Assembly (NCBI GenBank): GCA_905211955.1
Contig: CAJMCT010000001.1
Span: 1-40,374, forward strand
Source of the DNA: an uncultured Eubacteriales bacterium
Lineage (GTDB): Bacteria > Bacillota > Clostridia > Christensenellales > Borkfalkiaceae
Length of the DNA stretch: 40,374 nucleotides
Direction: 5' to 3'
The notes under the pieces were generated by a model. It worked only from the letters and a program-made list of their open reading frames with translations. It made no database searches and had not been told where the DNA came from. This document shows positions 6,131 through 26,300 of this stretch, piece by piece. A program made the position numbers and the translations under genes. How positions within the stretch are numbered: position 1 is the stretch's first letter; each line of letters opens with the position of its first letter.

Positions 6131-6141
6131 AATTTTACCTC

Positions 6142-7845: not shown

Positions 7846-8396
7846 TATTGTTCTCCATTGCAAAACTCGTAGTTTTTATAATTTTTTTGTTCAATTAATT
7901 TCGTTTGTTGTCTATCGTTTTCGTCTTTATAAGACAACGACACTTTCGTGGAATTATATACTTTCTCTAAATCTTCTTTTTTTATCCATCCATATAATTC
8001 TATGCTAATAGCAGACTTTGCAGGAATATTTAATGCTTTTACATTTTTATGAATTTGCCAAGAAATGTTATATGACTTATCATAGGGAATATCTACAAGC
8101 TTTTCTTTGTTCTGTCCCTGAAAAACTATTTTTATGTCACGCATAATTTTTACGTTACTACTTGAATTGTAGATTTCAAGATTAATTTTATAATAAAAAT
8201 TATGTGAATTTTCTATTGACGTTGCTTCACACTCATCTTGTGTTTGGAACACTCCATTTATACCGTCTTTAACAAAAATAGAAATTTTTCCTTTCCGTGA
8301 TAAATTATTTAACAACCAACCAACAATCGTACCTAATATTGTGCCCATCACGCCTATAATAGCATCCGAATTATCGCATACCGTTTCCCAAAACAT
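7845..8396 (-). CDS. Hypothetical single-pass membrane protein, first gene of the type III R-M operon
   Basis: 183 aa. N-terminal TM helix (AIIGVMGTILGTIVGWLLNNL). Its stop overlaps the mod ATG. No recognisable domain. Confidence 0.55.
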   Translation of the reverse strand: MFWETVCDNSDAIIGVMGTILGTIVGWLLNNLSRKGKISIFVKDGINGVFQTQDECEATSIENSHNFYYKINLEIYNSSSNVKIMRDIKIVFQGQNKEKLVDIPYDKSYNISWQIHKNVKALNIPAKSAISIELYGWIKKEDLEKVYNSTKVSLSYKDENDRQQTKLIEQKNYKNYEFCNGEQ

Positions 8397-8466: not shown

Positions 8467-9402
8467 TTAATTTTCTCTAACGCGCCACAATGCGGCAGGG
8501 TGATTTTTCACGTTTGCGATAATCTCTTCATTGCTAAACAACAATTCAGGAGCGTAAACTTTTTCTTGTAGTTTAGATAAAAACTCTTTTTCGCCGTCCG
8601 TTAAAACAAGTAAATCCTTTACATAAGCTAAAACTTTTTCTTTTGCCTTTTCAATATCAAACTTATCGTCTTTGGATATAACGGGTTTTAATTGAGTTTT
8701 ATACTTCCTATAATCTAATCTTTCAACGTTTTTATAGTCTAACTCTTGAATATCATAGTCCCCACCGATAGCGTTATAAAATACAAGGCATTTTCTTAAA
8801 AGTTCGGTATCGTTTATAACGTTATTTTCTATCATAGCGTTAACGTCGTACAAATCTCTTGGCGTAGCGCGAGATAAAAGTGCGTTAATTTTACTTGCAT
8901 AGAGTTCAATAGTGTTTAAGGTTAAAACTTCAAAATCTTCTACTATACCCTTCGTTAAAATTTTCTTCTTTTCAAGCGGTAAAACGTGGCACCTATCCAA
9001 GAAGTTAATTTCAACCTTAATGTTGTCACGATTACCGGCGTTGTTAATGTAATTAAATAAGAATGACGTTAAAGCGAAATGGTCGCGAGAATCGGCAAGT
9101 GAATAGCCTTCTTGCCACATATAATCGGTTAGGCGCTTTTTGAACTTCTCTTTAATTTCAGGCAATTCTTCCCTATCGACGTTTACGATAAAGTCCAAAT
9201 CAATATCAACCGAAAGGCGTGGAAGTTCTACCGCCGTTAAATTTATTGCCGTACCACCTTTAAGAGCAAGTTTATCCTTAAAAACAACGTCGCTATTTAA
9301 GAATTTTAGGATTTCAGAAAGACGTAAAACCTTTTCCAAAGTATCTTTTATAAAGTTAGATTCTTGGGCAAGTCTTGTCAAGTATTGTCTTGAAAATTCC
9401 AT
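8467..9402 (-). CDS. abiEii: AbiEii/AbiGii-family nucleotidyltransferase toxin (type IV TA / abortive infection)
   Basis: NTase motifs LKGGTAINL and LSVDIDLDF. 311 aa. Its start overlaps the stop of the upstream AbiEi gene. Confidence 0.8.
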   Translation of the reverse strand: MEFSRQYLTRLAQESNFIKDTLEKVLRLSEILKFLNSDVVFKDKLALKGGTAINLTAVELPRLSVDIDLDFIVNVDREELPEIKEKFKKRLTDYMWQEGYSLADSRDHFALTSFLFNYINNAGNRDNIKVEINFLDRCHVLPLEKKKILTKGIVEDFEVLTLNTIELYASKINALLSRATPRDLYDVNAMIENNVINDTELLRKCLVFYNAIGGDYDIQELDYKNVERLDYRKYKTQLKPVISKDDKFDIEKAKEKVLAYVKDLLVLTDGEKEFLSKLQEKVYAPELLFSNEEIIANVKNHPAALWRVREN

Positions 9403-10139
9403 TAATATCCCCCGTTTAGACGAGATTTAAGATTTTTAGGAGCCATAAGTTTCCATTTAGAATTAAACTCTATATCTTTATACTCGTCTCGTAAAAAATA
9501 TTTTATCTGATTGGTTAGTTTGCTTTTACACTCTTCAAAGAACGAATCGTTCATCATAAATTTGTCTTGAAAATGTTCTAACACGTAGCCTGTTTTTTGA
9601 TATAGAAATACCGAATCGTATGCTTTTAACGTTTCAAGTAGTTTTGTTTCGTCTAAAACGCGAATTTGGTCAAGCGCATTTAAGATTTCGTCAATTCCAC
9701 CGCCTGCGTCAATATCGTCAAGGCAGTCAATAACCGTACGTTCAAGAGACGTTACGCGAACCGCGGCGGTTACTATATTCATAATTTGAACGTCGTGTTT
9801 TAGGGGTTTACGAACATAGTCGATATCGTCAAAAGTAAAATCGTTGAAACGCTTTTTACTACCCACCGTTACGGTATTAAAAACTTGATTAGCCACGCCA
9901 AAATATTCAAAAGCAGAATGATAGCACACGAAAGCATCTTCAGCGATTTTTGTAGCAAGCTCAAACTTTGTCGTAAGCGGATATCCCGACACGTCAACGT
10001 GAACGTATAACCCGTTGCGAACCTTAACTATTTTTTTGGAACGAACTTGCCCCGCTATCCAATTTTCGTATTGTTTATCATTTATAAAATTGTCTATTAC
10101 GTCCTTTTTTGTAAACGTATAAGGGATAAATTTTGCCAT
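9402..10139 (-). CDS. abiEi: AbiEi-family antitoxin / transcriptional regulator
   Basis: 245 aa. Sits directly upstream of, and overlapping, the AbiEii gene. The N-terminal wHTH-like region plus C-terminal domain is typical of AbiEi. The call rests on context and general sequence resemblance. Confidence 0.7.
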   Translation of the reverse strand: MAKFIPYTFTKKDVIDNFINDKQYENWIAGQVRSKKIVKVRNGLYVHVDVSGYPLTTKFELATKIAEDAFVCYHSAFEYFGVANQVFNTVTVGSKKRFNDFTFDDIDYVRKPLKHDVQIMNIVTAAVRVTSLERTVIDCLDDIDAGGGIDEILNALDQIRVLDETKLLETLKAYDSVFLYQKTGYVLEHFQDKFMMNDSFFEECKSKLTNQIKYFLRDEYKDIEFNSKWKLMAPKNLKSRLNGGY

Positions 10140-10424: not shown

Positions 10425-10970
10425 TTACTTGTCGTCTAAGATTTTATCTTCTTCGAGTTTTAAGGATTTTAGCCACTCTTCCTTTTTAAGTTGGATTACT
10501 TGATAGTTTATACTTCCACGCGGACAACAAGATAATAAAAAGTTAAAGTCTTTTAGTTTGTTGCGAATCTTGTCGTTTGGGTCTTCGACTACAATTTTGG
10601 GTCTGCGATAAGCATTATATAAAGTTATAAAGCATTTCCAACTGTATGCCATCAAATTTTGTTTTGCGGCACGTTTGCAATACCTGCGCCAACATAGCCT
10701 TATAGACGATTGATTTTTACACATTTGAAACTCTTCCCACTTAAAATCGGGAATTAAATACCCGTCCCCTGCTTTCGCCCTTTCGAGGAATAATAAAGAA
10801 GAAATTTCTTCTTCACTCATTGACTTTACGTCATCATGATTAAGTTCTAGAGTTCGAAAACGCTTTAGCACAGTAAAAACAGTCATTCGAGAACAACTGC
10901 AAAGAGTAGCGATTTGCTCTTGTTTATTGCCTTTTTGATAATATTCAATGATTAATTTGTATTTTGACAT
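10425..10970 (-). pseudogene. IS21-family transposase (IstA) N-terminal HTH fragment without a DDE domain
   Basis: N-terminal HTH (QEQIATLCSCSRMTVFTVLKR). The IstA-like segment IPDFKWEEFQ...IRLCWRRYCK...YSWKCFITLYNAY resembles the conserved PDW..EL...LLWeEY...YSYsqFc..Y block. The ORF ends after 181 aa with no catalytic domain. Confidence 0.45.
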
Positions 10971-11090
10971 AATTTTCTCCTATTTTATCGCCCCTTTTTT
11001 ACCCATAGCGGTAGATACAGAAAAGTGTTCAATTTGAGGAACCACCCCGTTTTTTTGACCGATTTTTGACCTAACAAGAGATTTTTAAGA

Positions 11091-11126
11091 GAAAAAAAGT
11101 AGTCACTCTCCGAGAAGAATGACTAC
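11091..11126 (-). terminator. Rho-independent terminator-like hairpin
   Basis: On the minus strand: GTAGTCA-(14 nt loop)-TGACTAC followed by TTTTTTTC. It lies 270 nt downstream of the disrupted recombinase stop. Confidence 0.45.
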
Positions 11127-11394
11127 TAAAACCTTATTTTTTAATTAAAAATTGAATTTTTACCGCTTTACGGTGCTAATTCTTAGCCCCTAGGATTACG
11201 GATATTAGCCTGTGCTGTACCAACTTTCGAGCGAGCGATTTATCGCCCGTTTGAGTGCTGTATTATATCGCTTGACTATGTGCAATATCTGTATTCTACG
11301 ACGACGTCGCAGCTTGTTTTCGTATTTATACTACGCAAGTAAATAACTTGTCTTGAGTAGTTATTTTTCTCCCCTTATGAATTTTTCAAATCCC

Positions 11395-13075
11395 TCAAAT
11401 GTATACTCTGACAATGAGGTCTTCCCACTGATTGGGTCTTAACATTCCTTCTCTCTCTTTACGATATGTTTTCGCCTCGTTATAGTCTATCTTAAATGAC
11501 CAAACCATTTTTTTCTTTTCGTTCGGTTTCTCAATCAAATCGAAATCCATATACCACTCATAACAAGTTTCGCTTCGCGGAATAACGGTATCAACAAATT
11601 GCGAGATTATATCTCTATCCACATAATGCTCCGTAAAATCCATTTTTTGCAAAAGGAAATTCTGTATTTTCCCCTCTACGCTATCGCTGTCCGTTCTCGT
11701 TTCTACGCCTGCTTCAAATGCGAGTCTCTGTTGTACAACTTTTTCTCTTTCTTTTTCTATTTCAGATTTATATTCCAAAAATTCTTCTTTGGAAATTTCA
11801 TCTTCCAATCGCATTCGAGTCAAACGTTTCATTTTCTCGTCCAATTTAGCAATGTCTTGATTTAACCTATCTTTTAGAGCATCAGTCTGTCTGCGTCCCT
11901 CGTGGACCCCGACTTGATAAAGAGAAGAAACCTCATATAAAATATCTTTTCTGTTTCCCCATAGTCCTGAAAAAATATGTCTTGCCATCAACTCCAATTT
12001 CCAATCACATATTTCTCGCAAATCGCAAGCTCTTCCCGGATCGATTCCGGCTTCATCCCTTACGCTTTTTGAACCATTATTTAATTGGTTATAGCATTTG
12101 TATCCGTAGATTATATCTCCGTTTTTGTTTTTTCTCCACTTATTTCGGCGCATACGATATCCACAACGACATTTCAGTTTTTTTACCCAAACGTCGCCAC
12201 TCGCATGAATCCCCGCAGTATGTATTACATCACCGTCAAGCGAAAAATAATGAACTTTACGTTTTCTTTGTTCTCTTATTTGCTTACATCGTTCCCATTG
12301 CTCTTCACTGATAATCGGCTCAAAATCACCTTTCACATACATATAAGAATCTTCATCGCGATTCCTTATTATCTTTTGGTCAAGAAAATTGTTTCTTCGG
12401 GATTTCAGATATGCGGGGTAACCTTTATAGGTAGAATTATGCAAGATACGAGAAATTTTTGAATTCTCCCATCGCACTAAACCTGAACTATCCTTACGAT
12501 GCCGCCGAATCATTTCATCACGAATTTGCGACATACCCATTCCAGCGCAATACAAATCATATATCATTTTTACGGTTTCGGCTTGTTCCGCATTTATAAC
12601 ATATGTTCCTGTATTCTTGTCTCGATCGTAGCCGAGAATATTGCCGTTTCCGTATAGAACGCCCTTGTCGCGACTAATTTTCTGCCCCGCACGAACGCGC
12701 TCGGACGTTTTTCTGCTCTCTTCCTGTGCAAGCGTAGCCATAATCGTGAGTCGAAGTTCGCCGTCACCGTCCATCGTCCAAATGTTATCTTCGACGAAGT
12801 AAACTTCCACACCGTAATTCTTCAAATCTCTCGTGACCACAAGAGTATCTACTGTATTTCGAGCGAAACGGCACACCTCTCTTGTTACAATAAGGTCAAA
12901 CTTCTTTTGCTTTGCATCTTGAATCATTTGCAGAAACGCAGGTCTTTTCTTTGCTTGCGTTTCCGTGATACCTTCATCCACATACTTTCTCAACACCATC
13001 CAATTTTGATGCCTTGTTGCAATATCGTCATACCACTGAATTTGATTTTCCAAAGCCGACAACTGCGCTTCATGT
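11395..13075 (-). pseudogene. Large serine recombinase, 3' portion of a gene split by the transposon insertion (outer-element recombinase)
   Basis: Has resolvase, recombinase and Zn-ribbon regions but no N-terminal catalytic YxRxS segment and no ATG. The frame is open upstream only to the TAA of the neighbouring gene, and the ORF-track M is a TTG. The missing 32 codons are at 28838-28935. Confidence 0.8.
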
Positions 13076-13077
13076 TC

Positions 13078-13101
13078 GGATGAGTAAACGATAGGGAGAA
13101 T
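13078..13101. repeat. Left terminal inverted repeat of the transposon
   Basis: GGATGAGTAAACGATAGGGAGAAT matches the reverse complement of the right end, AGATGAGTAAACATAGGGGAAAC. 20 nt match with two 1-nt indels. Confidence 0.7.
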
Positions 13102-13110
13102 ATGCAGCCG

Positions 13111-14799
13111 TTAAAAGATTTCGGCTACACGACTTCCTTTCACTTTATACCCGTGCGTGCTTTCCGCACCGATAAATTTATAAATAATTCTGATTTCCTG
13201 TTTGTGTGCGCTTCCGTCGGCATACTTCTCGCCTATATAAATCCTGTCGATGAAATTATTCAGTATTTCGGGTGTAAGTCCCTCGATTTCCGTATAACTA
13301 TTGACGACCTTCAGAAACTCACGAATATTGCTCTCTTCGTCGTTTACAAGATCTAAAGCCTTTTTCAACTCAAGGATTTCGCTCTTTAAAGCCGTTTGTT
13401 CCGCCTCGTATTTTTTCGCCAACAAATCAAAGCGTTCGTCCGAAATTTTACCGGTTACGTTGTCTTCATACAGGTTTGCAATGATATCGTCAAGCGTTTT
13501 TATACGATTTTCCGCTTTTACAATTTTCGTTTGCGCCGAGAGCCGCACGCTCCGCATTTCTTTTACCGAACATTTACGATACTTTTCGATAAACTCCGAT
13601 TCGTGCGTTTTCACTTCGTTCATCACCCGTTTAATATCTTCCAGAACCAATTCGTTCAACACCCTCTTCAGAATCGAATGCGCCGTACACTGAATTTTCG
13701 TCCGTCTGTTGTACTTTGAGCAAACGTAAAAATCATAGTTCCTGTTTTTTGCAACACGTCTTAAAGTGATAGGAAATCCGCAATCGGCACAATATAACAA
13801 TCCGGCGAAAATATTGATATCGTCAAAGTGATTTTTCACAACCCTTTTTACCTGCGTCAACTTCTGCGCCAGATCAAACGTTTCCTTATCGACAATCGCT
13901 TCGTGGTGATTTTCGATAACCTTCCATTCGGACGGATCGCGATAGACAAACCGTTTGTTTTTATACGATTTTCTCGTCGTTTTGAAATTTACGAGATGTC
14001 CGATATAATTCGGATTACGCAAGATTTTATAAACCGTGCTTCTGTGCCATAAATACGGTTCGGTCGTGTCGTTCCGATACATATTCCTGCCCTGTTTCAG
14101 ATAAAACGCTTTCGGGGTGTCGTAGCCATTTTCGGTCAGTATTTTCGCTATTGCAAGTGCGTTATAGCCGTTTACGCATAGTCTGAATATCTCCCGGATT
14201 GTCGGCGCGCACCTTTCGTCTATCAACCACTTGTTTTTGTCGTTCGGATCTTTCATATATCCGAGCGGCGGCGTGTTCGTCAGCGGTTTTCCCGATTCGC
14301 CTTTATTCCTTATCACCGCGCGTATTTTTTTGCTCGTATCTCTCGCAAGCCATTCGTTGAAAACGTTTTTGAACGGTATCAATTCGTTATCCGAGCCGTT
14401 TTCGCTATCCACGTTATCGTTTATCGCTATAAAATGAATATCTTTTTCGGCAAACGTAAATTCCGTAAGATAGCCGACTTTCAGATAATCTCTTCCGAGC
14501 CTCGACATATCTTTTACGATTATCGTTTTCACTTTTCCTTCGTCTACGTCGGACATCATTCTTTGAAAATCCGGGCGATTGAAATTCGTTCCGCTGTAAC
14601 CGTCGTCGATATAATATTCAATATTCCGGTATCCGTGTTGTTTCGCATACCGCCCGAGAATATCTCTCTGATTTTTGATACTGTTGCTTTCGCCCTCGGT
14701 CCCGTTATCGTCTACGCTGAGCCTGCAATAAAGCGCGGTTATTACCTCACCTCCGTTTTTTGTTCTTTTATTTTTATTTGCCGTTTGTAATTCTAACAT
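13111..14799 (-). CDS. Large serine recombinase (TnpX/TndX-like transposase)
   Basis: Catalytic motif ALYCRLSVDD...SIKNQ, DDGYSGTNFNRPDFQRM, SRLGRD, a recombinase domain and a Zn-ribbon (CADCGFP...YVCSKY). The stop lies 33 nt from the element end. Confidence 0.9.
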   Translation of the reverse strand: MLELQTANKNKRTKNGGEVITALYCRLSVDDNGTEGESNSIKNQRDILGRYAKQHGYRNIEYYIDDGYSGTNFNRPDFQRMMSDVDEGKVKTIIVKDMSRLGRDYLKVGYLTEFTFAEKDIHFIAINDNVDSENGSDNELIPFKNVFNEWLARDTSKKIRAVIRNKGESGKPLTNTPPLGYMKDPNDKNKWLIDERCAPTIREIFRLCVNGYNALAIAKILTENGYDTPKAFYLKQGRNMYRNDTTEPYLWHRSTVYKILRNPNYIGHLVNFKTTRKSYKNKRFVYRDPSEWKVIENHHEAIVDKETFDLAQKLTQVKRVVKNHFDDINIFAGLLYCADCGFPITLRRVAKNRNYDFYVCSKYNRRTKIQCTAHSILKRVLNELVLEDIKRVMNEVKTHESEFIEKYRKCSVKEMRSVRLSAQTKIVKAENRIKTLDDIIANLYEDNVTGKISDERFDLLAKKYEAEQTALKSEILELKKALDLVNDEESNIREFLKVVNSYTEIEGLTPEILNNFIDRIYIGEKYADGSAHKQEIRIIYKFIGAESTHGYKVKGSRVAEIF

Positions 14800-15543: not shown

Positions 15544-16578
15544 TTACTTATGATTATTGTTTCTGCCTTGTTTTTCTTGCTTTTTGCGTTCTTCTTCGAT
15601 TTCCGCTTCTATCTGTTGTAACCTCGGAACTTGCCGAACGACGTCGAGCGTAAAGAGCGAAAGAACGGAATCGAAAAAGCTACCGATTGTTTTTGGCTTT
15701 CCGTGGACGATACGCTCGTATTCTTTCGGATTAGTTCTTGCAAGTGTTTTTCCCGCGTGGATATAACGATTATCGTTATCCCTTTGTCTTTGTAATGCTT
15801 CCGATTTCCGCGCATATTCGAGCGTTTCGTCCATAGCCTTTGTAAGCCGTTTTGAAAGGTCGTTGTTGTCTGCCGTTAAAGCGATTACTTGTTCCTGCAA
15901 CTTTCCGCGTTTCCGTGGAATATTCCCGCTTTTTGCCTCGGTTAAAGCGTCCGCATAAACCTGATTTTCTTCCCGTATGGCTTCCGCTTGCTCGATTATC
16001 TTTTTTGCCTTAAATTCTGCGGTGGAAAGGTGTTTTTTCTGACTACCTTCTTTTCCGCGCTGTAAACCCCAACGTTTTCCGACGGATTCATAAAAATCCG
16101 TCTGCAACTGCTGTAACTGCGGTTTATCGAAAAGTTGTTTACTGCAAAGTCTGCCGTCTTTTGTTACGGGCATCAGGTTTAAGTGCATATGCGGCGTTGT
16201 TTCGTCGTTATGAACAACCGCCGCGATAATGTTTTCTTCGCCGTAACGCTCCGCAAAAAACTTGTAGCAGTCCGAGAAAAAGTTATATTGTTCTATCTTG
16301 GCTAAACCGTCGAAAAAAGTTTTATCCGACCCTAACACAAACGAGTTCATTACAACTGCGTCTTTGCGCGGAGATAAGCCTAACTCTTTTATTCTGCCGT
16401 TTATGAACTCCGTGTAAGTTTTGCCGAAATATGGCGTGAAGCGATAATTGTTTCTCGTCCGCTCGCTGTCTATTTGTGGATTGTCCGACTTGTATTTTTC
16501 GTCCCGTTCGTTTTCCTTTTCGATAGGCGCGACGTCTTGTTTATGGTATTTCTCCATATGACACACTAAATATGAAAT
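15544..16578 (-). CDS. MobV-family relaxase (Mob/Pre plasmid recombination enzyme, TnpZ-like)
   Basis: Mob_Pre motifs include AAVVHNDETTPHMHLNLMPV (HxDE...HxH). The canonical N-terminus MSYLVCHMEKY requires an ATT start at 16578, 9 nt after AGGAGG. A conservative ATG is at 16557. The 36-codon extension in the ORF track lacks an RBS. Confidence 0.85.
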   Translation of the reverse strand: MSYLVCHMEKYHKQDVAPIEKENERDEKYKSDNPQIDSERTRNNYRFTPYFGKTYTEFINGRIKELGLSPRKDAVVMNSFVLGSDKTFFDGLAKIEQYNFFSDCYKFFAERYGEENIIAAVVHNDETTPHMHLNLMPVTKDGRLCSKQLFDKPQLQQLQTDFYESVGKRWGLQRGKEGSQKKHLSTAEFKAKKIIEQAEAIREENQVYADALTEAKSGNIPRKRGKLQEQVIALTADNNDLSKRLTKAMDETLEYARKSEALQRQRDNDNRYIHAGKTLARTNPKEYERIVHGKPKTIGSFFDSVLSLFTLDVVRQVPRLQQIEAEIEEERKKQEKQGRNNNHK

Positions 16579-16685
16579 GATGATTTTCCTCCTGAAATTT
16601 GTTTTTATTCTCATTGAGCAAAGTGTGTAGAATTTCCTCTGCCGACTGTTTTTATCAGTGGGTTCACAGCCTCGCAGAGCCCACA

Positions 16686-16717
16686 ACTTCGCCTGCGAAG
16701 TATAGTGGGCTACACTT
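16686..16717. other. Candidate oriT / RSA site for the MobV relaxase
   Basis: Hairpin ACTTCG-CCTG-CGAAGT (16686-16701) overlaps AAGTATAGTGGGCTACACTT (16698-16717). That segment resembles, from memory, the pMV158 oriT core AAGTATAGTGTGTTATACTT. It lies just upstream of mob. Confidence 0.45.
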
Positions 16718-17132: not shown

Positions 17133-17645
17133 TTAGTTAATGCCGCATTCCGATTCACTAATTAGAAGCGGTAAAAGCCATTTTAATATCCAACGCTTTG
17201 TCGTGTCGTAATTTGAATCGTAAAACACCGCGCCGACAATCGCTTCGATATAAGGATCGTGTCCTTTATTTACTACTTTTTCGTGATCTGGAACATTCGA
17301 ATCCGATTGGAAGTGTTTTGCGTTGTATGCATATCCGATTAAACCGCATTTCAGCATAATATTATGCATAACTTCATTATTTTCAAGTTTACTTTTTATC
17401 TGCGTAATCTCGCCTTTTGTAGTTATTCCTTTCCGATAGAGATAATCGGCAATAACGGATTTCAATACAGTATCGCCGATTGTTGCAAGCCCGTCGTTAG
17501 TGTATTCGCTATGGTTCTTTCCCTCTCCGAAAACTTCTATTTTTTCCGATCTCATTGCCTTTGAAAGCCACGCGATATCGTTAAAATGGTAATGTATTTT
17601 AATTTCAAGTTCGCGCATTTTTTGATATACAACGACTCTATCCAT
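17133..17645 (-). CDS. RNase III-domain-like protein (Mini-III-sized, no dsRBD); operon gene 7
   Basis: 170 aa. NDGLATIGDTVLK (17472-17498) aligns to the RNase III signature NERLEFLGDAVL. DPYIEAIVGAVFYD aligns to the second catalytic block DxxEAxxGA. The ATG overlaps the upstream stop by 1 nt. Confidence 0.55.
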   Translation of the reverse strand: MDRVVVYQKMRELEIKIHYHFNDIAWLSKAMRSEKIEVFGEGKNHSEYTNDGLATIGDTVLKSVIADYLYRKGITTKGEITQIKSKLENNEVMHNIMLKCGLIGYAYNAKHFQSDSNVPDHEKVVNKGHDPYIEAIVGAVFYDSNYDTTKRWILKWLLPLLISESECGIN

Positions 17646-18190
17646 CAGATTTTATCTCCATTGAATACAATTCTATTAGACAAATTCACTTCCACGGATT
17701 TACCGTTTTTATCTATATCAAACCAAGAAATATCATTTTTATATCTGTCCGTCAAGCATAAAATGCGTTGATTTTCAGAGCCGAGTAACCTGCGTTTTGT
17801 TTCTTTTTCTTCCAAAACGTATTCGCCATCAAGCACAAGGTCTACGCCGGCAAGAAAGTCTGAAACTTCTTCGTATTTTCTGCCCGTAAACGATATAATG
17901 CCAAGCCCGAGTTTTTTTATTTCGTTGGTTAAAAACGGAAGATTATGTTGACAAGTAGGTTCTCCGCCGGAATACGTTACCCCTTCAATTCCAAATTCGT
18001 CAATCGACTTTTTTATTACCGAAATAATCTCGTCGATCGACATAATATGGCGCGCAATAAACGGCTGGTAATCAGGATTACAACACTCGTTACAATGAAT
18101 ATCGCAACCCTGAAACCATATACACAATCTTTTGTGCGGACCTTCTGTTTCCGTACAACGGTTTATACTCGCAACGTTAAACTTAATCAT
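17645..18190 (-). CDS. Small radical-SAM protein of the NrdG/glycyl-radical-activase-like type; operon gene 6
   Basis: FQGCDIHCNECCNPD contains CxxxCxxC (18083-18106). GGEP motif (YSGGEPT). ~181 aa from ATG 18190, which overlaps the upstream gene by 8 nt. The ORF-track start at 18208 is a TTG. Confidence 0.65.
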   Translation of the reverse strand: MIKFNVASINRCTETEGPHKRLCIWFQGCDIHCNECCNPDYQPFIARHIMSIDEIISVIKKSIDEFGIEGVTYSGGEPTCQHNLPFLTNEIKKLGLGIISFTGRKYEEVSDFLAGVDLVLDGEYVLEEKETKRRLLGSENQRILCLTDRYKNDISWFDIDKNGKSVEVNLSNRIVFNGDKI

Positions 18191-20021
18191 TGTCAAAATC
18201 AAATTCAAGCCCGTTTTTCGTCGTTTTTACTACGATTTTCGAGCCTTTCATCGACGGCAATTCTTCTTTGTTTTCAAACATAAACATAGCAAGTTCGTCA
18301 AGCAATTTATCATTGATGGCGTTAAGAATATCACGACCGCCTTTACTGCTGTCCGCTCCGCCGAGAACGTAATCTATAAATTTAAGTTCGTCTTCAAATT
18401 CAAGGTCGATACGATATTTTTCCGATATTGCTTTCTGGACCGGACGAAGTTTCGATTTTGCAATTTTTACGCTAAACTCTCTGTCTTTGATGAAGTTGAA
18501 CGGAATGATATTGCTGTAACCGATACGACCGAGAATTTCGGGACGTTTGATTTCGTTATCGAAATAGTTTTTAACGATTTTTATAAACTCATCCGCCACT
18601 TCTTCGTTTGAACCGTTCGAAGACACTTCGGACGCTCCGAGATTTGACGTGAATATAATTACGCTTTCGCTGAAATAAACCGTTTCGCCTTTGCTGTCGG
18701 TAAGTCTGCCGTCTTCGAGAATTTGCAGAAAAATATCCAGAATTCTCGGATTCGGTTTTGCTGCTTTTTCGATTTCGTCGAATAGAATTATGCTGAACGG
18801 TTTTTCTTTCACGGCGTTAGTAAGTTGCCCGCCTTCTTCATAACCGACGTATCCCGGAGGCGCGCCGATAAGTTTCTGATCACTGTTTTCCTGCGCATAT
18901 TCCGACATATCGAAGCGAATACAAGCCTGTTCGTCGCCGAAAAGGAATTTTGCAAGCGCCTTTGAAAGTTCGGTTTTACCTACGCCGGTAGGTCCGACGA
19001 AAAACAGCACGCCTTTCGGTGCAGAACGAGAAGACGATTTATGTATTCCCGTAAGTCCCATATAAGCCTTAACAACGACTTTTTCAATCTTTTCGATAGC
19101 TTCTTCCTGACCGACTACACGTTCGCTTAAAATCTTTTTGATGTTTTTAACCGACTTATAGTCGAGTTTTTCCCAAGGATTATCTTTTTCGCCGTACTTA
19201 AACAGCAAGTACAACTGCTCGAACGGCATTTTGCCTTCTTTTCTCGAAAGGCGCGCCATCTGAACGATTTCACGGTTTGTAAAATCGTCGAGCATATCGA
19301 CGTATTCGTTAAATTTGTCCGAAGTCAGGAGCGTTTCTCCGGGTTTGAGTTTTACGTCGAATCCGCTCTCGATTTTTTCCATCATTTTAGCGCGTTCTTC
19401 TCTGTCGGGTTTTGAAAGAGTAAGACAAGCGACTTCGGGGTTGCCCTGATAGAAAGAAATCGGGAACATTGCCAGTTTGCTCGTAATGAGAATAACCGTG
19501 CTTTCGTTTACTTCGGCAGACAAATACTCCGTTTTTTTATCTTTTATCGCTTTCCCGAGCATTGTGATAAGTTCTCTCTCGTCGGGCGGTAATTGTCCGC
19601 CGCTTGAAAAGAGATAATCCGCCCAATTCAGCACGAAAGCAGTTTTTCTATTCGGCTTCTTCAAGTTTTTGAATACGATATTGAAAATCTCGGCAGGCTC
19701 TTTGAACTGACCGCTTCCCGTTTTTTCTTCCGCTTGCGGTTGATTATCTTCGTCATCGTCAAAGGAATAAGCGTCTCCTTCAACTTCGACTTCATCGATA
19801 ACGGAAAGCCTTGAAACGTCTCCGTCTATGCCGTCGATACGATCCCAATACAAAACGTCGTCGTATTCCATTCCTTTGAGCATGTCCGTAAGGTATTGTT
19901 TCAGATCGACGATTTGCTTTTTGTCGTTAAGATACACGTCACCGACGTTGCCGTCGAGTATTACGCATCTTTTGATACCGACTTCGCGTTTTAACCTGTT
20001 AAACGTTGTTTGTAATGCCAT
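18183..20021 (-). CDS. AAA+ ATPase with a ClpA/ClpB D2-type module and a degenerate N-terminal half; operon gene 5
   Basis: VVGQEEAI...FFVGPTGVGKTELSKALA (Walker A at 18972-18995), LIGAPPGYVGYEEGGQLT and IILFDEIEKA (Walker B) are classic Clp D2. The first ~330 aa have no Walker A. The start is ATG 20021, preceded by GAGGTG at 6 nt. Confidence 0.75.
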   Translation of the reverse strand: MALQTTFNRLKREVGIKRCVILDGNVGDVYLNDKKQIVDLKQYLTDMLKGMEYDDVLYWDRIDGIDGDVSRLSVIDEVEVEGDAYSFDDDEDNQPQAEEKTGSGQFKEPAEIFNIVFKNLKKPNRKTAFVLNWADYLFSSGGQLPPDERELITMLGKAIKDKKTEYLSAEVNESTVILITSKLAMFPISFYQGNPEVACLTLSKPDREERAKMMEKIESGFDVKLKPGETLLTSDKFNEYVDMLDDFTNREIVQMARLSRKEGKMPFEQLYLLFKYGEKDNPWEKLDYKSVKNIKKILSERVVGQEEAIEKIEKVVVKAYMGLTGIHKSSSRSAPKGVLFFVGPTGVGKTELSKALAKFLFGDEQACIRFDMSEYAQENSDQKLIGAPPGYVGYEEGGQLTNAVKEKPFSIILFDEIEKAAKPNPRILDIFLQILEDGRLTDSKGETVYFSESVIIFTSNLGASEVSSNGSNEEVADEFIKIVKNYFDNEIKRPEILGRIGYSNIIPFNFIKDREFSVKIAKSKLRPVQKAISEKYRIDLEFEDELKFIDYVLGGADSSKGGRDILNAINDKLLDELAMFMFENKEELPSMKGSKIVVKTTKNGLEFDFDND

Positions 20022-20026
20022 TATTT

Positions 20027-21112
20027 TCACCTCTTATTTGTGTTTGTTTTTACCGTTTGGTACTTCATAGACAATATTTTATCGGGATTGCTCCAAATTT
20101 CCTGCGTTTTGGTAACATGTAAACCGTAAACTTCTTCCAAATCGTTCAGAAAAGGCTGTATATCCTTTTGGCACGCCTGTCCTTCGTAACCTCGGAAGTC
20201 GTAAATAAATTTACCGTCCAGAAACACGCGGAATTCCGCTTTTTCGCCGCTTGCTTTCAGTCCGACCAAAATCACTTCGTTTGTATCGCGTTTGATTTTT
20301 ATATTCTTTTTATCCACGATAAATCCGCGGGCGGTTATCGCCGACATTATGATTTTCAGCGACTTCTGACGGATTTTTTCGCCTACGATTTCTTCCGTCG
20401 CCGCCGATCTTATTTCGGAAAGCGGTTTATTCTCTGTTATGACTTTATCGATGATAGTCTTTTCAACTCTTGCGGCTTCGAGTTCGCGGCGAATCTTTTC
20501 ACGCTCTTTTTCGATACGCGATTCATAAGTTTCGTTTTTGAGTTCTCTGCCCGCTCTGATTAGATCATCGCCCGAAAGCGTATCGTTTTTCAGATATGCA
20601 AGGTAAGCAAACTGCCTTTCCGTTTCGTCCTGAATGGAATCGAGAAGTTTTTGAATCTCGGCGGGGATTGTAACGACTCCGTTTGCTTTATCTCTCAATC
20701 TTTTTTGATTTTCTTCGATACTGTTTTCAAGTAAACTTTGATAAAGCGCGCGCATTTCGACTAATCGTTTAGCCGCCAACTCGTTTACTTGATTTTGTAA
20801 TTCTTGCGCCGCTTTATCCACGTTATCGGCAGAATTCAGTCTTAATCTGTCGCTATCACCGCTTACAACGCCTTTTTTCGCTACTTCTTTTGCCTGCGCT
20901 TTTAAGTTTTCGATTTTTCTAACGAATGAATCTCGTTTTTCTACAATCAATTGTTGTAATGCCGCCGTCTGACTATTCTGTAAGCTTTGCGAGCCGTTTT
21001 CTATATCCGAAAGTATCTGGTCGAGTTCGGCGATCTGCCTTTCGGCAACTTCGCAAATGCTTTCGCATCTTATCGCTATCGCCTCGTAGTCTATTTGTAC
21101 CTGATGGCTCAT
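20027..21112 (-). CDS. Coiled-coil protein with a ~100-aa C-terminal globular domain, unknown function; operon gene 4
   Basis: The first ~260 aa have heptad-rich, low-complexity Q/E/K/L/A composition. The start ATG 21112 forms an ATGA overlap with the stop of gene 3. No recognisable catalytic motif. Confidence 0.6.
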   Translation of the reverse strand: MSHQVQIDYEAIAIRCESICEVAERQIAELDQILSDIENGSQSLQNSQTAALQQLIVEKRDSFVRKIENLKAQAKEVAKKGVVSGDSDRLRLNSADNVDKAAQELQNQVNELAAKRLVEMRALYQSLLENSIEENQKRLRDKANGVVTIPAEIQKLLDSIQDETERQFAYLAYLKNDTLSGDDLIRAGRELKNETYESRIEKEREKIRRELEAARVEKTIIDKVITENKPLSEIRSAATEEIVGEKIRQKSLKIIMSAITARGFIVDKKNIKIKRDTNEVILVGLKASGEKAEFRVFLDGKFIYDFRGYEGQACQKDIQPFLNDLEEVYGLHVTKTQEIWSNPDKILSMKYQTVKTNTNKR

Positions 21113-23337
21113 TTTCGTTCCCCCTTTATGGCAAATACTATATCGCGCCAATTTTCAATCGTTTCTTTATCGAAACGTGTTTGCGACTTTTCCGGATGTT
21201 GCAATCCGTTTCTGCACATACGAAGTTTATGTAATGCGGATTCTTGCTTGCCGTCGAGAATGCCTTTATCTTTTGCCATAACGAGTAAATCGTGTGCAGA
21301 CGTCATAGGCTCGGCGTTAAGCATATCTCTTAAATCGTATTGCAGTTTTACGAATAAATCGCAAATTACGTCTTTATATTTTCCGCGTGCAATCTGCTCG
21401 TCAACGTATTTTTTCGTAATTTTTTCGGGATGAGAAGACGCGCTGCGCTCAATAGACAACAAATCGTGAATCGGTTCGTAAATCTCTATAAACTTTCTGA
21501 TTGCAGCATAGGATTTAGGCGCATATTTCTCGTATTTTGCCACCGATTTCAACTTCGAATTAAGCGTAGCGTAAGCATCGAAAAATTCGTCTTCGTTATA
21601 ATCGTCTTTAAGCGTATATTCCGAAAGGCTCTCTATCCCGAGCATATCGTTCAGTTTCCACAAATTCCGTTTAATATTACAAAAAGTGTTACCGAGATCG
21701 GAATCCGAGTAAATTTCTTCGTTATTTACAACTTTCTCGGCAAAGTCCGCCACCACATTCACAACACTTAAAACGGCGTCAACGGTAAAACCTGCGCTTA
21801 AAAGTGCCTCGTAAACAATATCGTCGTCTTCCGTTTTTTTCATTTCTTTCGCAAAGGCGGAAACGTAGTCGAAATCGTTCATCCCGAGTGCTTTTCTGAG
21901 CGGATTCAACACCGACGATTTATAAATCGCATTATCGATTTTTATCTCGCTTGCGCTTTCTTCAAACAATTCTTTTGCCGTCGATACAAAATAGTTTTGC
22001 CACTCGGCATTCTTGATAAAAGCGTTATTCAGTTTTAACACAACTTCTATCTTTTCATCAACAGTTTTTGTGTTTTCAAACAGCGCCCTAATAGTTCTAC
22101 CAAAATACGAAGAATCTTTCAACGCGGCAACCGTAAACAAAACCACTTTTGCAACATCGTCGGCAAAATCTTTTTGTACGTAATACTCAAAAATTTCTTC
22201 TACCGTTTCTTTATGGCGCATTTCGTCTAAAACACTTTCGGTAAGCAACTGCATTTCAAACGTATCGCCAAGCTGGTTGCAAGCCATTTTTACGTTTACG
22301 GCGGAATAGTAGTGAAGCGCGGAAGTATCGAGCAAAGCAAACTCGGCATTCCCGCCTATTTCGCCAAGTATCTTTATCGAAAAATCTTTATCCGTTCTTA
22401 AAACGTTATCCGTTCTGTCGGTTGCAAGTCTGCCGCCGTCGATAAAAATTTTACAAGGTCGTTTCGCCTGCTTGGATACGTCGTTCGGGATATATGCGCC
22501 CACGATATCGGTAAGCTCGGAAAGTAACACCGTCGGCACGTCTACCGCATTTTTAAGAGCGTCCACAAACTTATACTTTTCTTTGGCAAGCAAGCATTTT
22601 GTCATAAATGCGGATGAATACCACTTGTCAAAATATGCGGTTTCGTCCGACGTTTCAAACGAAAATACAGCGCCGCTTTTGTTTATTACAACTTGCGTTC
22701 CGTCCTCTTTTCTGACTTGTTTTTCTTCTCCGACCTTGGGTATTTCGACTTCGACAACGCGTTCTTCGGCTTTTAGCCCTACTTTTGTCGGATTCGCTTC
22801 TATATAATCTTTAAGTCCGCTTATGTCTATCGTTTTTCCTAAAAACCTTTCGATATCTTCGTAAAGAACGGACGAATCGAGAGAGGTATACGGAAGCGAA
22901 TAACTCACGTCGAATTTCCGCGTTACGGGGCTATAAAAAATATCTTTCGTCTTTACTTTTTCTTCGCCTGTGGGAATCGCGCCTTCACGGAACATTTTTC
23001 TGCCTTTCGCAGTAAGCGAAACGTCTTTTACTCTGATTTCCGAAAAGTATTTCGGATTCATAAAATGCGACGGATCGTAGTCATAAGACAGTATTTCGGT
23101 ACCGATAAGATTTGAAATTTCTTTCCCGAAAATATAGTGCAAATCATTCGGAATCCCGAATTTAAGCAGCACGTCGCATATTTTGTCTTCCGAACCCGCA
23201 GTTTTTTCGATTACGTCGAGTAGAATATATGCAACGCCCGACGCCTTCCTTACCTCGTTATATCGCACGTTTACTTTATAGACAAGTAGCGGAAACGGAA
23301 TAGCCGTAGTGAATTTTAACAAACTTTTCTCTTCCAT
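21109..23337 (-). CDS. 742-aa protein of unknown function with a C-terminal HEPN-like Rx4H motif; operon gene 3
   Basis: No recognisable N-terminal domains. The C-terminal helical region contains LHKLRMCRNGLQH, with R-N-G-L-Q-H at 21196-21213. The ATG lies 1 nt after the helicase stop. Confidence 0.6.
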   Translation of the reverse strand: MEEKSLLKFTTAIPFPLLVYKVNVRYNEVRKASGVAYILLDVIEKTAGSEDKICDVLLKFGIPNDLHYIFGKEISNLIGTEILSYDYDPSHFMNPKYFSEIRVKDVSLTAKGRKMFREGAIPTGEEKVKTKDIFYSPVTRKFDVSYSLPYTSLDSSVLYEDIERFLGKTIDISGLKDYIEANPTKVGLKAEERVVEVEIPKVGEEKQVRKEDGTQVVINKSGAVFSFETSDETAYFDKWYSSAFMTKCLLAKEKYKFVDALKNAVDVPTVLLSELTDIVGAYIPNDVSKQAKRPCKIFIDGGRLATDRTDNVLRTDKDFSIKILGEIGGNAEFALLDTSALHYYSAVNVKMACNQLGDTFEMQLLTESVLDEMRHKETVEEIFEYYVQKDFADDVAKVVLFTVAALKDSSYFGRTIRALFENTKTVDEKIEVVLKLNNAFIKNAEWQNYFVSTAKELFEESASEIKIDNAIYKSSVLNPLRKALGMNDFDYVSAFAKEMKKTEDDDIVYEALLSAGFTVDAVLSVVNVVADFAEKVVNNEEIYSDSDLGNTFCNIKRNLWKLNDMLGIESLSEYTLKDDYNEDEFFDAYATLNSKLKSVAKYEKYAPKSYAAIRKFIEIYEPIHDLLSIERSASSHPEKITKKYVDEQIARGKYKDVICDLFVKLQYDLRDMLNAEPMTSAHDLLVMAKDKGILDGKQESALHKLRMCRNGLQHPEKSQTRFDKETIENWRDIVFAIKGERK

Positions 23338-23338
23338 T

Positions 23339-26300
23339 TTACTCTCCTAAAATATCTTTCGCCGTAAGTATTCTTCCGCGGAAGTTTATCGTGTCGATAA
23401 TTTCTCTGTATACGGGGAAGTTGATTTTATCGCGACTGTGATCGCCTTCGAGATCGGGAAGGTCGATTATGCCCGCTTCCGATAAAAACTTTTTCGAGCC
23501 GACAATAATCAAAAGTTTTCTCGCTCTTGACAACGCAACGTTGATACGCTCGAATTTTTTGATAAATTCCGCATCATACCTCGCGCCGCTCGGATTTCTT
23601 ACCATCGAAACGATAATGATATCCCTTTCATCGCCTTGGAAATCGTCAACGGTACTGATAACAAGTTTTTCGTCCGGTTTACCCGAAAAGCCCGTAAATT
23701 GATAGCCTTTACGTTTCTTTTTTATTAGTCCCGCCTGATCGCCATATGTACAAATAATACCCGCGCTCGGTCTTTCGTCGATTTTCCTTGACGGATCAAC
23801 GATAATTTTATGCTCGGAAACAAGCACTTTCGCCGCTTTGTCGAGTTCCTTTAATAGCGTTATCGCAACCTGCGCTTCCTGCTCGTTGATTTTGGACGTA
23901 CTGCCTTCGAATGCGCTCGATTCTTTTTGGTCGCAATCCACAAAATATATGTGCCGTTTGGGATCGATAACGGTATTTCCGTTGATTTTTACGGTAAGAT
24001 TATGCTCTTTTTCGTCGTCTTGTTGTTTTTTTCCTACAACAAGACCTTTACCATTACCGCCATAGAAATGATTGAACACTTCCATAATGTGGCTGTGGCA
24101 ACGGTATTGCTTATTAAGCATTACTCTGAAATCGCTCGGAACTTTCTCATACAGCGTTTTGAAGAAACATTCTTCATATAACTTTGTATATCCGTCGTTG
24201 ATTTCCTTTGTGATTTTTTCTTCGTCGAGTCCGTCGAAATCATCTCCCCGCATATGCCGCAAATCGTACATAGGCGGAAGTTGACGATGGTCGCCGACGA
24301 GAATAACCGTCTTGCCGTATAAAATAGGTATCAGCAAATCGAGAAAAGACGACTTTGACACTTCGTCCACGATTACAACGTCTATGCCTTGCGTTCTGAT
24401 ATCTACCGATTCGATTCCGTATTTACCGAGTTCGGCAAGTTGCGACGGCGTGAATCTGTCGCGGCTTGTGCAGGTAATACCGAAAACGTTTGCCGAATTG
24501 TAAAGTTCTCTCGTATATGCGGCTCTATCTTCCTCTAAGATATCTTCCTGCGACAAGTATTTTACGATATCCTTATACATCGGAATTTTTATTTTGTTTT
24601 CGGAAGACGAAGCATTATACTCGGTTTCGAGTTTATTCCACTCGTCGCTGATAATGTCGAAAGCCGTTTCAAGATTGTCCGAATCGTATTCCCTGACAAT
24701 TCCGAAATCGCGGAAAAATCTCATAATCTTTTGTTTTAGTACGGAATTCAACTCACCGTATTCTTCAATATCGGGATTTTCTCCGAGTTTTTCGTATAAA
24801 CGTTTTTTCTCGCTTATTTGGATTTTTAGTTCGTTTATTTTATCGGATATAGCGTTTTCGTTGTCTATATCGCCATTGATTTTGAATTCGATTATATTTC
24901 TCTGTGTGTTTACAATATCGGCAAGTTTTGCCTTGAATTGCGCAAGTTCGGAAGGCAATTGCTTCAATATTTCTTTTGCACCCGTAATACCGGGGACGAG
25001 AGAGTAAATCACGCTTCCGGCAATATCGAACTCCGAATTATTTTCGTATTCTTTAATCTTTTTGCCTACGGCAATCAACTCGCTTTGATTCTTTTTATAC
25101 TCTTCGTAATTAAAATCTCCTTCATTCGGTGCTTCGTCCGTATCGGGATCTCGCAAACCGCTCAAAACGTTTCGCAAAGCACGCTGGCGATTTTTTAACT
25201 CCACAATCGCGTCTTCGCTCAAAAAACGCTCTAATTCTTTGTTTATTGCCTGAATATCGGCATTAACAAGCTCGGCAACCTTATCGAGCGTTACCTCTTC
25301 AAAACAAGCAAAGCACTTTAACAGGCGTTCTACTTGTTCGGCGTATTTATCCAATACGTTGCTATCTGCGCCTTCGCCCGAAAAACGATACGATTCGACG
25401 TATTTAAGCGTTCTCGTATACTTTTCGGTATCTTCTTTTGCGGCAAGAAGTTTTTCTCTTAAAACTTCGTTTTCTCCGGTTAAACGGTTTATTTCTGAAA
25501 GCAAATTGTTCCGCTTTCTTTCCGTATCTGCATTCTCCCGTTGCAATTTCAAAAGGCGATCGTAATCGAGGCGAAGAGATTTCATCGTCGAATCGAATTC
25601 TTCTCTCGTCTCTTTGTAATTGTCGTATCTTGCTACTTGCTTTTCAAGGTTTCCGCAAATATTGAGATAGAAATTGTCTACAAGCCTTTCGGGACTGTAA
25701 TTCGTTTCTTTACCGTTTTGCGACGGAATAAGACGAAGCGGACGTATTTCGGGGATTTTAGGCAATCTGTCAAATACGTTATCGATTGCCTTATGTGTTT
25801 CGGAAGATATTAAAACTTTCTTACCGCGTTTCGTCAGTTGCGCCGTAATCTCGGCTATAACCTGTGTTTTTCCCGTTCCCGGAGGACCTTGCAACAAAAA
25901 TATACTTTCGCTTTGAAGCGCGCGTTTTACGGCAAGTTTTTGTCTGTCGTTCAAACTTTCAAGACACCACTCGGGATCTTTGATCTCTTCTACGGAAGAC
26001 TGCGCAAGCGTTTCGGGCGAAAAAAGATACGTCGGTAAGAACGGATTCTTAACGTACCCGCCCAAAATAGAAGTCAACGCCTTTTCTTGTCTGTCTATTT
26101 TTGCTTTTTCCGCACGATTATCATAAGTAAGATACCTCGGCGCAATTTCCTCGATTTGCTTTTCGATTTCTTTTACTTTGTCTGTGATATCTTGCGGACG
26201 GAAATAAATCTGATATCGGCGTATCGTTTCGTTCTCGATTTTATCAGCCTTATCTTCGTTTAATTTTTGAAGTAAAACGTTTTTTATTTCGGTTTTCTCG

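Follow-up and report, generated by a model that had tools for sequence, protein, structure and literature searches.

To our knowledge, glycyl-radical activases, the small radical S-adenosylmethionine (SAM) proteins typified by NrdG and PflA, have been thought to exist solely to switch on glycyl-radical enzymes (GREs). Here, we describe a relative of these activases, g6, in a window of 40,374 nucleotides (the whole stretch of DNA that was analyzed) from an uncultured Eubacteriales bacterium (contig CAJMCT010000001.1). g6 encodes a 181-aa NrdG/PflA-like protein on the minus strand (17645–18190) within an operon of seven genes, g1 to g7. Its placement rests on Pfam, NCBIfam, and the pyruvate formate-lyase (PFL)-activating enzyme (PFL-AE) as best solved relative. 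Like NrdG and PflA/PFL-AE, g6 has the small partial-barrel radical-SAM fold and the CX3CX2C cluster motif followed by Asn, together with the [DE]GPGxR loop and the GGE and GSxN[QH] motifs. Unlike them, it has no GRE partner nearby, its fixed partner is an AAA+ ATPase (g5), and it occurs in strict aerobes. An additional conserved C-terminal stretch of ∼35 aa and a second Cys (CCNP) also set it apart.

Four other described systems share features with the locus. Prokaryotic viperins (pVips) are likewise radical-SAM enzymes within defense islands, but g6 is ∼100 aa shorter, lacks their nucleotide-binding C-terminal extension, and has different partners. QueE and RaSEA, small radical-SAM enzymes with a pterin and tRNA-bound preQ0-Lys as their respective substrates, are similar in size to g6, but no queuosine or archaeosine genes lie near it. 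Mokosh type I, which consists of MkoA and the phospholipase D (PLD) nuclease MkoB, pairs an MkoA-type superfamily 1 (SF1) helicase with a nuclease-type effector, and so does the present cassette; in contrast to that system, no operon protein matches PLD or MkoB, the effector-like HEPN or PIN domain is carried by another protein, and there are conserved genes g4 to g6, which Mokosh lacks. Loci of the DO-GTPase/GAP1-N2 type hold relatives of g6 (32–37% identity), of g5, and probably of g4, whereas genes for DO-GTPase, GAP1, vWA, and FGS are all missing from the window. The ATPase g5 itself resembles ClpB and ClpV in a D2 module with all motifs and GYVGY and has, judged by eye, no ClpP-docking loop; unlike them, it has a single active ring, a degenerate N-terminal AAA-like half (GNVxD), and neither a ClpN nor an M domain.

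g6 is a new branch of a known lineage, and the cassette is a new architecture around a Mokosh-type helicase. We found no described counterpart of the pairing of a radical-SAM protein with an unfoldase. PADLOC-DB 2.0 (2023) has no model for g3 or g4 and gave generic domain matches for g5 (DolB, PDC-M37B) and g6 (viperin core); NCBIfam release 20 (2026) has no specific model; and the searchable literature, which takes in few subscription journals, held no account of the gene combination, an absence that is not proof. The interest of the locus lies in a large and widespread activase branch that has no GRE and is tied to an AAA+ unfoldase in candidate immune cassettes.

The g6 gene and its place among activases

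The g6 reading frame runs on the minus strand from an ATG at 18190 to a TGA at 17647–17645, and the protein begins MIKFN. Read on the plus strand, 17645–18190 has stop codons throughout. An in-frame TTG lies six codons 5′ of the ATG and, according to the alignment, is not used by most homologues. The open reading frame (ORF) is a genuine gene, since 387 protein clusters match it at E ≤ 1e-3 (62–96% identity among the 120 matches listed). Its ATG lies within the final codons of g5, giving an 8-nt overlap (‘gacaATGATTAA’), and its TGA and the ATG of g7 have one A in common (‘TGATG’). Translational coupling of g6 to its upstream and downstream genes, as claimed in an earlier reading of the window made from the letters alone (the sequence-only reading), is therefore real.

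The same reading had described a 181-aa protein with an activase-type cluster motif and GGEP, and both motifs are indeed present in the minus-strand sequence. Residues 28–39, preceded by WFQ, are ‘GCDIHCNECCNP’ and hold C29, C33, and C36, the C29-x3-C33-x2-C36 motif of the radical-SAM [4Fe-4S] cluster (codons 18083–18106, minus strand), which is invariant in alignments. G75-G76-E77-P78 (codons 17957–17968, minus strand), assigned by sequence and alignment, form the GGE SAM-binding motif; across all genomic contexts with PFL-AE aligned, invariance is strict at G75 and G76 and almost complete at E77 and P78. Pfam Fer4_12 (1.2e-21, 77.9 bits against a cutoff of 22) and Radical_SAM (5.7e-9, 36.8 bits against a cutoff of 29.5) both match. 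The alignment of g6, its relatives from all contexts, and PFL-AE has further invariant positions at G17, P18, and R21 of the [D/E]GPGxR loop; at G28, N38, G70, T72, and Q81, along with the three cluster Cys and the Gly pair; and at G137 and N140 of the GSxN[QH] motif. The loop of g6 reads E16-G17-P18-x-K20-R21, and N38 stands after the third cluster Cys. The invariance of loop and cluster residues means that g6 keeps the cluster site, the SAM site, and the substrate-side loop elements known from PFL-AE, in which the DGPGxR-type loop and the post-cluster Asn reportedly touch the peptide substrate. Judged by its motifs, g6 is a catalytically intact radical-SAM enzyme.

The resemblance to the small activases of anaerobic ribonucleotide reductase (RNR) and PFL noted earlier held in both sequence and structure searches. 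The best NCBIfam model is NrdG (TIGR02491; 74 bits against a cutoff of 126.1), and the second is PflA (TIGR02493; 59.6 bits against 231.75), followed at a distance by the GRE activase model TIGR02494 (36.4 bits against 174.35). QueE models reached 16.6–23.4 bits against cutoffs of 206–300, MoaA likewise fell far below NrdG and PflA, and pVip models matched in the radical-SAM core region alone (E 1e-4 to 1e-3). PFL-AE is the sole convincing solved relative (profile of 22 members, E 2e-11), and a Foldseek search with a low-confidence model of g6 also ranked PFL-AE first (E 2e-6) and QueE second. Because all scores lie under the curated cutoffs, g6 falls outside every curated activase family. The hidden Markov model search for a subfamily with a known substrate, which had been proposed as a check, thus left g6 under every cutoff, and on its sequence, g6 is activase-type yet belongs to none of the curated subfamilies for which a substrate is known.

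Neither did g6 gain a GRE partner. The sequence-only reading had found none by eye among the operon proteins, and Pfam, a motif scan of the operon and the six-frame window, and a comparison with NrdD all came back empty as well. NrdD sequences taken from true NrdG loci showed no similarity to the window (best E 0.4), and NrdD was absent from every g6-family locus examined.

In a profile search for relatives of g6 among clusters at 50% identity, at least 1,979 clusters matched at E ≤ 1e-10, and 7,644 did so at the looser limit of E ≤ 1e-3. Distant relatives (32–38% identity) separate into a group A, which adjoins NrdD with an RRITGY glycyl-radical motif and comprises ordinary NrdG genes, and a group B, found in a conflict system described below. 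Of 126 full-length representatives (50% cluster level) that we compared with labeled sets, 88 were closest to the group-B conflict type, 31 to the family of the window, and 2 to NrdD-linked NrdG. Relatives from other contexts scored 87–115 bits on the NrdG model, and all of those tested fell under its 126.1 cutoff. One relative, P0153 (391 aa), has its NrdG-like domain fused behind an N-terminal DUF5591/ArcS-like domain, an arrangement that recalls the ArcS-RaSEA archaeosine complex; in another, P0162 (399 aa), the domain is fused to an uncharacterised C-terminal extension of ∼220 aa. Matches to g6 in phages were ordinary NrdG genes of rV5-like phages (∼30% identity) and were set aside.

Association with a Clp-like ATPase across loci

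We examined the company that g6 keeps in loci drawn from a scan of 185,579 species genomes, contig look-ups, and plasmid records, of which 40 had a near-full-length g6 relative (identity ≥45%); for each gene, the counts take in those of the 40 with enough flanking DNA. g5 lies directly upstream of the g6 relative in 34/34 loci; g4 is present in 30/31, g3 in 27/29, and g2 in 25/26. The counted loci cover Clostridia, Bacilli/RF39-like lineages, Anaeroplasmataceae, and Bacteroidales. g7 occurs in 3 of the 33 loci that extend far enough downstream and also in L010 (L008–L011 only), and all of these are relatives at least 88% identical. The co-conservation that had been expected for genes 5 and 7 thus holds for gene 5 and fails for gene 7. 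The RNase III-like g7, which had been put forward as a functional partner of g6, is a lineage-specific accessory and a local add-on. The position 3′ of g6 is variable: L001 has no ORF there (10546–11190), and L088 (12485–13171) and L090 (12489–13268) have an unrelated gene of 228 or 259 aa, the products of which in L088–L090 gave no Pfam or PADLOC match. A decayed copy in L002 (8323–10008) has a fusion of the g2 N terminus with g5 and is missing g3 and g4, and L044 (7088–7480) and L046 (4373–4684) lack g5 and retain no more of the radical-SAM gene than internal fragments.

g5 (18183–20030, minus strand) encodes a 615-aa ATPase that matches Pfam AAA_2 (9e-51) and, over residues 296–610, ClpB (TIGR03346). 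Its N-terminal half is a degenerate AAA-like domain, in which GNVGD replaces Walker A. A complete ClpB-D2-like AAA+ domain makes up the C-terminal half and contains Walker A (GPTGVGKT), Walker B (FDEIEKA), the pore loop GAPPGYVGY, sensor 1, arginine finger, and sensor 2; by these intact motifs, the domain is predicted to be active. Matches to g5 on C. difficile ‘plasmids’ proved to be housekeeping ClpC in a ctsR operon.

We compared selection on the genes between the window and loci L004, L014, L015, L017, L022–L024, and L047. At loci where g6 is 60–66% identical, g5 is 87–92% identical (N-domain 83–89%, AAA+ domain 90–94%), against 55–66% for g2, 43–56% for g3, and 51–59% for g4. Third-codon-position identity at conserved residues is equal across the genes (∼0.45–0.55), and therefore, the conservation of g5 reflects purifying selection and not recent transfer. 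Purifying selection of this strength, which includes the degenerate N-domain, is unusual for a gene in a defense-type cassette. Slow evolution of g5 would fit a part that acts on something conserved, and fast evolution of g2 and g3 would fit parts that face the invader.

The same five-gene cassette is carried on plasmids of Moellerella wisconsensis (six), Leisingera thetidis, Polaromonas naphthalenivorans CJ2, and Acinetobacter sp. WCHA55, in the last case on the NDM-1 plasmid pNDM1_010055. The order there is MkoA-like helicase, PIN protein, g4-like protein, AAA ATPase, and radical-SAM protein, and RefSeq gives all five genes generic names. The helicases match MkoA at 1e-96 to 1e-102, a hypothetical protein has a C-terminal domain that matches that of g4 (E 1e-15 to 1e-19), the AAA ATPase is 36–41% identical to full-length g5, and a ‘4Fe-4S single cluster domain-containing protein’ is 33–37% identical to g6. 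The start–stop overlap of g6 and g5 is kept in Leisingera and Polaromonas. The PIN protein (compared in L091 4108–5967, L092 3585–5987, L094 4417–6882, and L095 4625–6787) carries PIN_4 at its C terminus (4.6e-22), and its N-terminal ∼290 aa match the N terminus of g3 (hhalign E 3.9e-5, probability 71%). Given this shared N terminus, it is the same protein with a swappable RNase-type domain, which in the g3 family is HEPN-like in Firmicutes and Bacteroidales and PIN_4 in Proteobacteria. The MkoA-type helicase family is thereby extended to a new architecture with exchangeable HEPN and PIN domains. Megablast of g5–g7 DNA against plasmids gave no match, and the cassette is absent from 5,426 complete E. 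coli genomes, where ClpB-like fragments alone were found. Directly downstream of the Acinetobacter cassette (L095 10733–12715) lie a VakA/PDC-M51B-like small kinase gene and a gene for a 328-aa viperin-like radical-SAM protein, so two distinct radical-SAM defense candidates are adjacent on the NDM-1 plasmid.

Outside the cassette, the pair recurs in other settings. Group B, with hosts among Planctomycetes, Proteobacteria, Scalindua, Aminicenantes, Chloroflexi, and Verrucomicrobia, has a zinc-ribbon DO-GTPase2-like gene directly downstream of the radical-SAM gene, and its further neighbors are GAP1-N2, vWA-like, and FGE-like proteins, a coiled-coil protein (c7), and a g5 orthologue that is full length, degenerate N-domain included. 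A g5-like gene lies within 9 kb in 8 of the 15 DO-GTPase/GAP1-N2 loci. Group B corresponds to the DO-GTPase/GAP1-N2 conflict system of Kaur et al. 2020 (PMC7159879), the text of which mentions no NrdG-like radical-SAM or Clp-like component. c7 stands directly upstream of the group-B g5 orthologue, in the same placement as g4, and the C-terminal domains of the two align Cys to Cys (hhalign P 0.004; full-length P 0.034), a statistically modest match suggesting that they are related.

A plasmid of Aristaeella lactis (L096 1–15000) has an overlapping radical-SAM/g5-like pair in reversed gene order, with a DUF4011 (Hhe-like) helicase, two Ser/Thr kinases, FHA, a PP2C phosphatase, and DUF6273 as neighbors; from its gene content, this locus looks like a phospho-signaling conflict system. 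A 430-aa protein considered there as the g4 counterpart showed no match to g4 and P 0.037 with c7 and was not counted. On a B. cereus plasmid (L093 8992–12801), the radical-SAM gene is accompanied by genes for a 151-aa unknown protein, an HHH_3 protein, a classical AAA ATPase (IetA-like), and DUF2997, and this helix-hairpin-helix (HhH)/AAA/DUF2997 context of a radical-SAM clade recurs in Rhodococcus, Arthrobacter, and Paenarthrobacter. Since the radical-SAM/ATPase pair, usually with a g4-like protein, is found in differing conflict systems, it looks like a portable module. This recurrence, like the HEPN-like motif of g3 and the MkoA-like helicase, had been passed over in the sequence-only reading.

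Proposed mechanism and competing explanations

As the explanation that best covers the whole, we tentatively favor, at somewhat less than even confidence, a history in which g6 left the world of GREs and became the fixed, translationally coupled partner of the unfoldase g5, with the g4-g5-g6 module then captured by conflict systems. In such a system, the fast-evolving helicase and RNase proteins (g2 and g3) would sense the invader. The slow-evolving g5 would engage a protein (g4 itself, perhaps, or else some conserved protein of the cell or of a phage) and present an extended segment of its backbone to g6. g6 would then cleave SAM and abstract a hydrogen atom, just as the Gly734 loop loses one to PFL-AE, and the resulting protein radical might activate the partner or lead to irreversible backbone damage or cleavage. 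That g6 and the unfoldase form a new kind of immune effector, in which the ATPase threads or opens a protein and g6 places a carbon-centered radical on its backbone as an activating switch or as the act of a ‘radical protease’, with the three-gene module common to conflict systems built on helicases, GTPases, and kinases, is doubtful in our judgment, and we are about equally skeptical that the chemistry of g6 is categorically new. If it is an effector, the module would give immunity, after viperins, a second use of radical-SAM chemistry that works by a different mechanism, and it might be the first immune case aimed at proteins. The cassette is found in culturable and tractable hosts (plasmids of Moellerella, Acinetobacter, Polaromonas, and Photobacterium) and is directly testable.

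Several observations weigh against this account. The protein substrate of g6 is putative. No operon protein matches Pfam Gly_radical, PFL-like, or NRDD, and neither the RVxG[FWY] motif nor its relaxed variants occur in the seven operon proteins or in the six-frame translation of the 40-kb window. Some contexts are centered on nucleic acids, with a helicase and RNases here, HhH in B. cereus, and the ArcS-like fusion P0153. The locus counts given above overstate independence, because some loci are the same or near-identical contigs, and one g5-like ATPase, in Geminocystis, has no radical-SAM gene within 8 kb. The AlphaFold2 model of g6 (22 close homologues) has a predicted local distance difference test (pLDDT) score of 62, which permits a coarse fold match and not a reading of the active site; that of the g4 C-terminal domain scores 59 and gave nothing significant with Foldseek. 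The five-gene cassette (six with g1) is a candidate anti-phage system from its genomic context. Finally, the cassette occurs in the strict aerobes Acinetobacter, Polaromonas, and Leisingera, and for this reason a stored glycyl radical is unlikely, and a transient radical or oxygen-assisted cleavage fits better. PFL exposed to oxygen undergoes backbone cleavage.

The main rival is that g6 acts on a nucleotide or nucleic-acid base in the style of viperin, QueE, or RaSEA, yielding a toxic or signaling nucleotide or modifying or damaging RNA or DNA, while the ATPase is separately regulatory; we consider this unlikely, if a serious contender. With a helicase of Upf1/MkoA-like type, a HEPN or PIN domain, and RNase III, the partners in the cassette are RNA directed; an HhH DNA-binding protein is the neighbor of relatives in B. 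cereus and Rhodococcus; and viperins are a precedent for radical-SAM enzymes in defense. QueE is the second-best structural match to g6, but its sequence likeness (23 bits), like that of viperin (core, E 1e-3 to 1e-4), is far under those of NrdG and PflA. P0153 is fused to an ArcS-like DUF5591, and RaSEA is a radical-SAM enzyme that acts on tRNA in complex with ArcS (PMC11298593). However, the partner that persists across architectures is a protein-threading ATPase rather than an enzyme of nucleic acids, RNA and other nucleic-acid components are missing from the GTPase and kinase contexts, and the 181-aa g6 has no additional substrate-binding domain like the C-terminal extension of viperin.

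The remaining explanations fare worse than a module that acts on a protein. It is quite unlikely that the cassette is non-immune and serves its mobile element in maintenance, exclusion, or anti-defense. The cassette does always lie on plasmids or integrative elements beside recombinases, relaxases, or ArdA, but its neighbors are overwhelmingly defense genes, its helicase resembles MkoA, and HEPN and PIN replace each other as the effector-type RNase domain, as happens in defense systems. Nor is there much to commend a non-catalytic g6, which as an Fe-S subunit would sense SAM or redox state and so gate the ATPase, for example as a guard against phage SAM-degrading enzymes: phage SAM lyases are a known counter-defense, and the coupling of g6 to the ATPase is tight and probably stoichiometric, whereas the invariance of catalytic motifs, SAM motifs, and substrate-side loop over large distances exceeds the needs of a ligand sensor, which makes this reading very improbable. 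Least probable of all is that g6 works in trans as an activase for host NrdD or PFL, as metabolic cargo or to manipulate the deoxynucleotide supply during infection. It is 32–38% identical to the genuine NrdD-adjacent NrdG proteins of group A and keeps the GSxNQ C-terminal motif common to PFL-AE, and the hosts of its closest family are mostly gut anaerobes, which normally have class III RNR. In contrast, it lies under all activase equivalog cutoffs, its family in the counted loci never adjoins a GRE and always adjoins g5, only 2 of the 126 representatives are closest to NrdD-linked NrdG, and the cassette occurs in strict aerobes, which do not use GREs.

The rest of the operon and the defense island

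The operon consists of seven tightly packed minus-strand genes from 28490 to 17133. The first, g1 (27966–28490, minus strand), encodes a 174-aa protein with no significant family in Pfam, NCBIfam, or PADLOC; it is kept at 47–68% identity upstream of g2 in many loci and, with an N terminus that by eye is helix-turn-helix-like, is possibly a regulator. g2 (23339–27964, minus strand) encodes a 1541-aa SF1 helicase of Upf1/MkoA-like type, with matches to Pfam AAA_11 and AAA_12 and, over residues 443–1526, to PADLOC MkoA (5.1e-87). g3 (21109–23337, minus strand; 742 aa) has no Pfam match above cutoff; its N-terminal region is conserved, and its C terminus is a HEPN-like domain that ends in LHKLRMCRNGLQHPE. 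Alignment places an Rx4H HEPN-type motif at R709-N-G-L-Q-H714 (codons 21196–21213, minus strand), and R709, N710, and H714 are invariant in 16 homologues with identities down to 23%. The HEPN family DUF4145 appeared below threshold in 5/5 divergent g3 homologues, as top match in 4, and a HepT-like family was the second match in 3/5 (E 8e-4 to 8e-3 for these matches, under the 23.1-bit cutoff). We read the g3 C terminus as a putative HEPN-type RNase domain.

g4 (20027–21112, minus strand; ATG at 21112) encodes a 361-aa protein in which an N-terminal coiled coil is followed by a conserved domain of ∼110 aa at the C terminus. It has no Pfam or PDB match; profiles of g3, of g4, and of the g4 C-terminal domain alone were all without a hit in the PDB. 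In the alignment of that domain, Gly289 is invariant, and Cys314 is the one Cys conserved universally; it is the sole Cys of the Moellerella and Acinetobacter homologues. A CxxxC near the g4 N terminus was dropped as a cluster site, being absent from the proteobacterial homologues. The C-terminal domain (20030–20401) gave a Pfam SpmSyn_N match at E 0.021, a weak hint of likeness to AdoMetDC or the spermine synthase N-terminal domain that is a lead only; Foldseek listed 3c6k (probability 0.84 but E 0.8) and also 3dz3. If true, a SAM-related domain beside a radical-SAM enzyme would be of note. In the g4 homologues P0271 (630 aa) and P0334 (613 aa), the coiled coil is enlarged by internal repeats, and the C-terminal domain is unchanged; the length of the coiled coil appears free to vary. 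The last gene, g7 (17133–17645, minus strand), encodes a 170-aa protein with an RNase III domain alone (Pfam Ribonuclease_3, 2e-11) and no double-stranded RNA-binding domain. By eye, g7 reads ‘NDGLATIGD’ where the canonical sequence is ‘ERLEFLGD’, so that Ala takes the place of one acidic residue; the later D...E pair is retained, and without the RNA-binding domain, the protein resembles Mini-III-type enzymes.

Elsewhere in the window are GmrSD (270–2087), a type III restriction-modification helicase and methylase (3518–7863), AbiEii (8467–9402) with a likely antitoxin gene beside it (9402–10139), two large serine recombinases (11395–14799), and a MobV relaxase (15544–16686). From this gene content, the operon is placed in a defense island on a mobilizable element. 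In L005, a Clostridiales copy, the cassette adjoins SIR2/DUF87 and an nSTAND3 protein. At 32790–35876, the window encodes a 1028-aa protein with weak DUF7743 and type IV secretion system pilin-like C-terminal matches, a hint that the same mobile element has functions in conjugation or at the surface.

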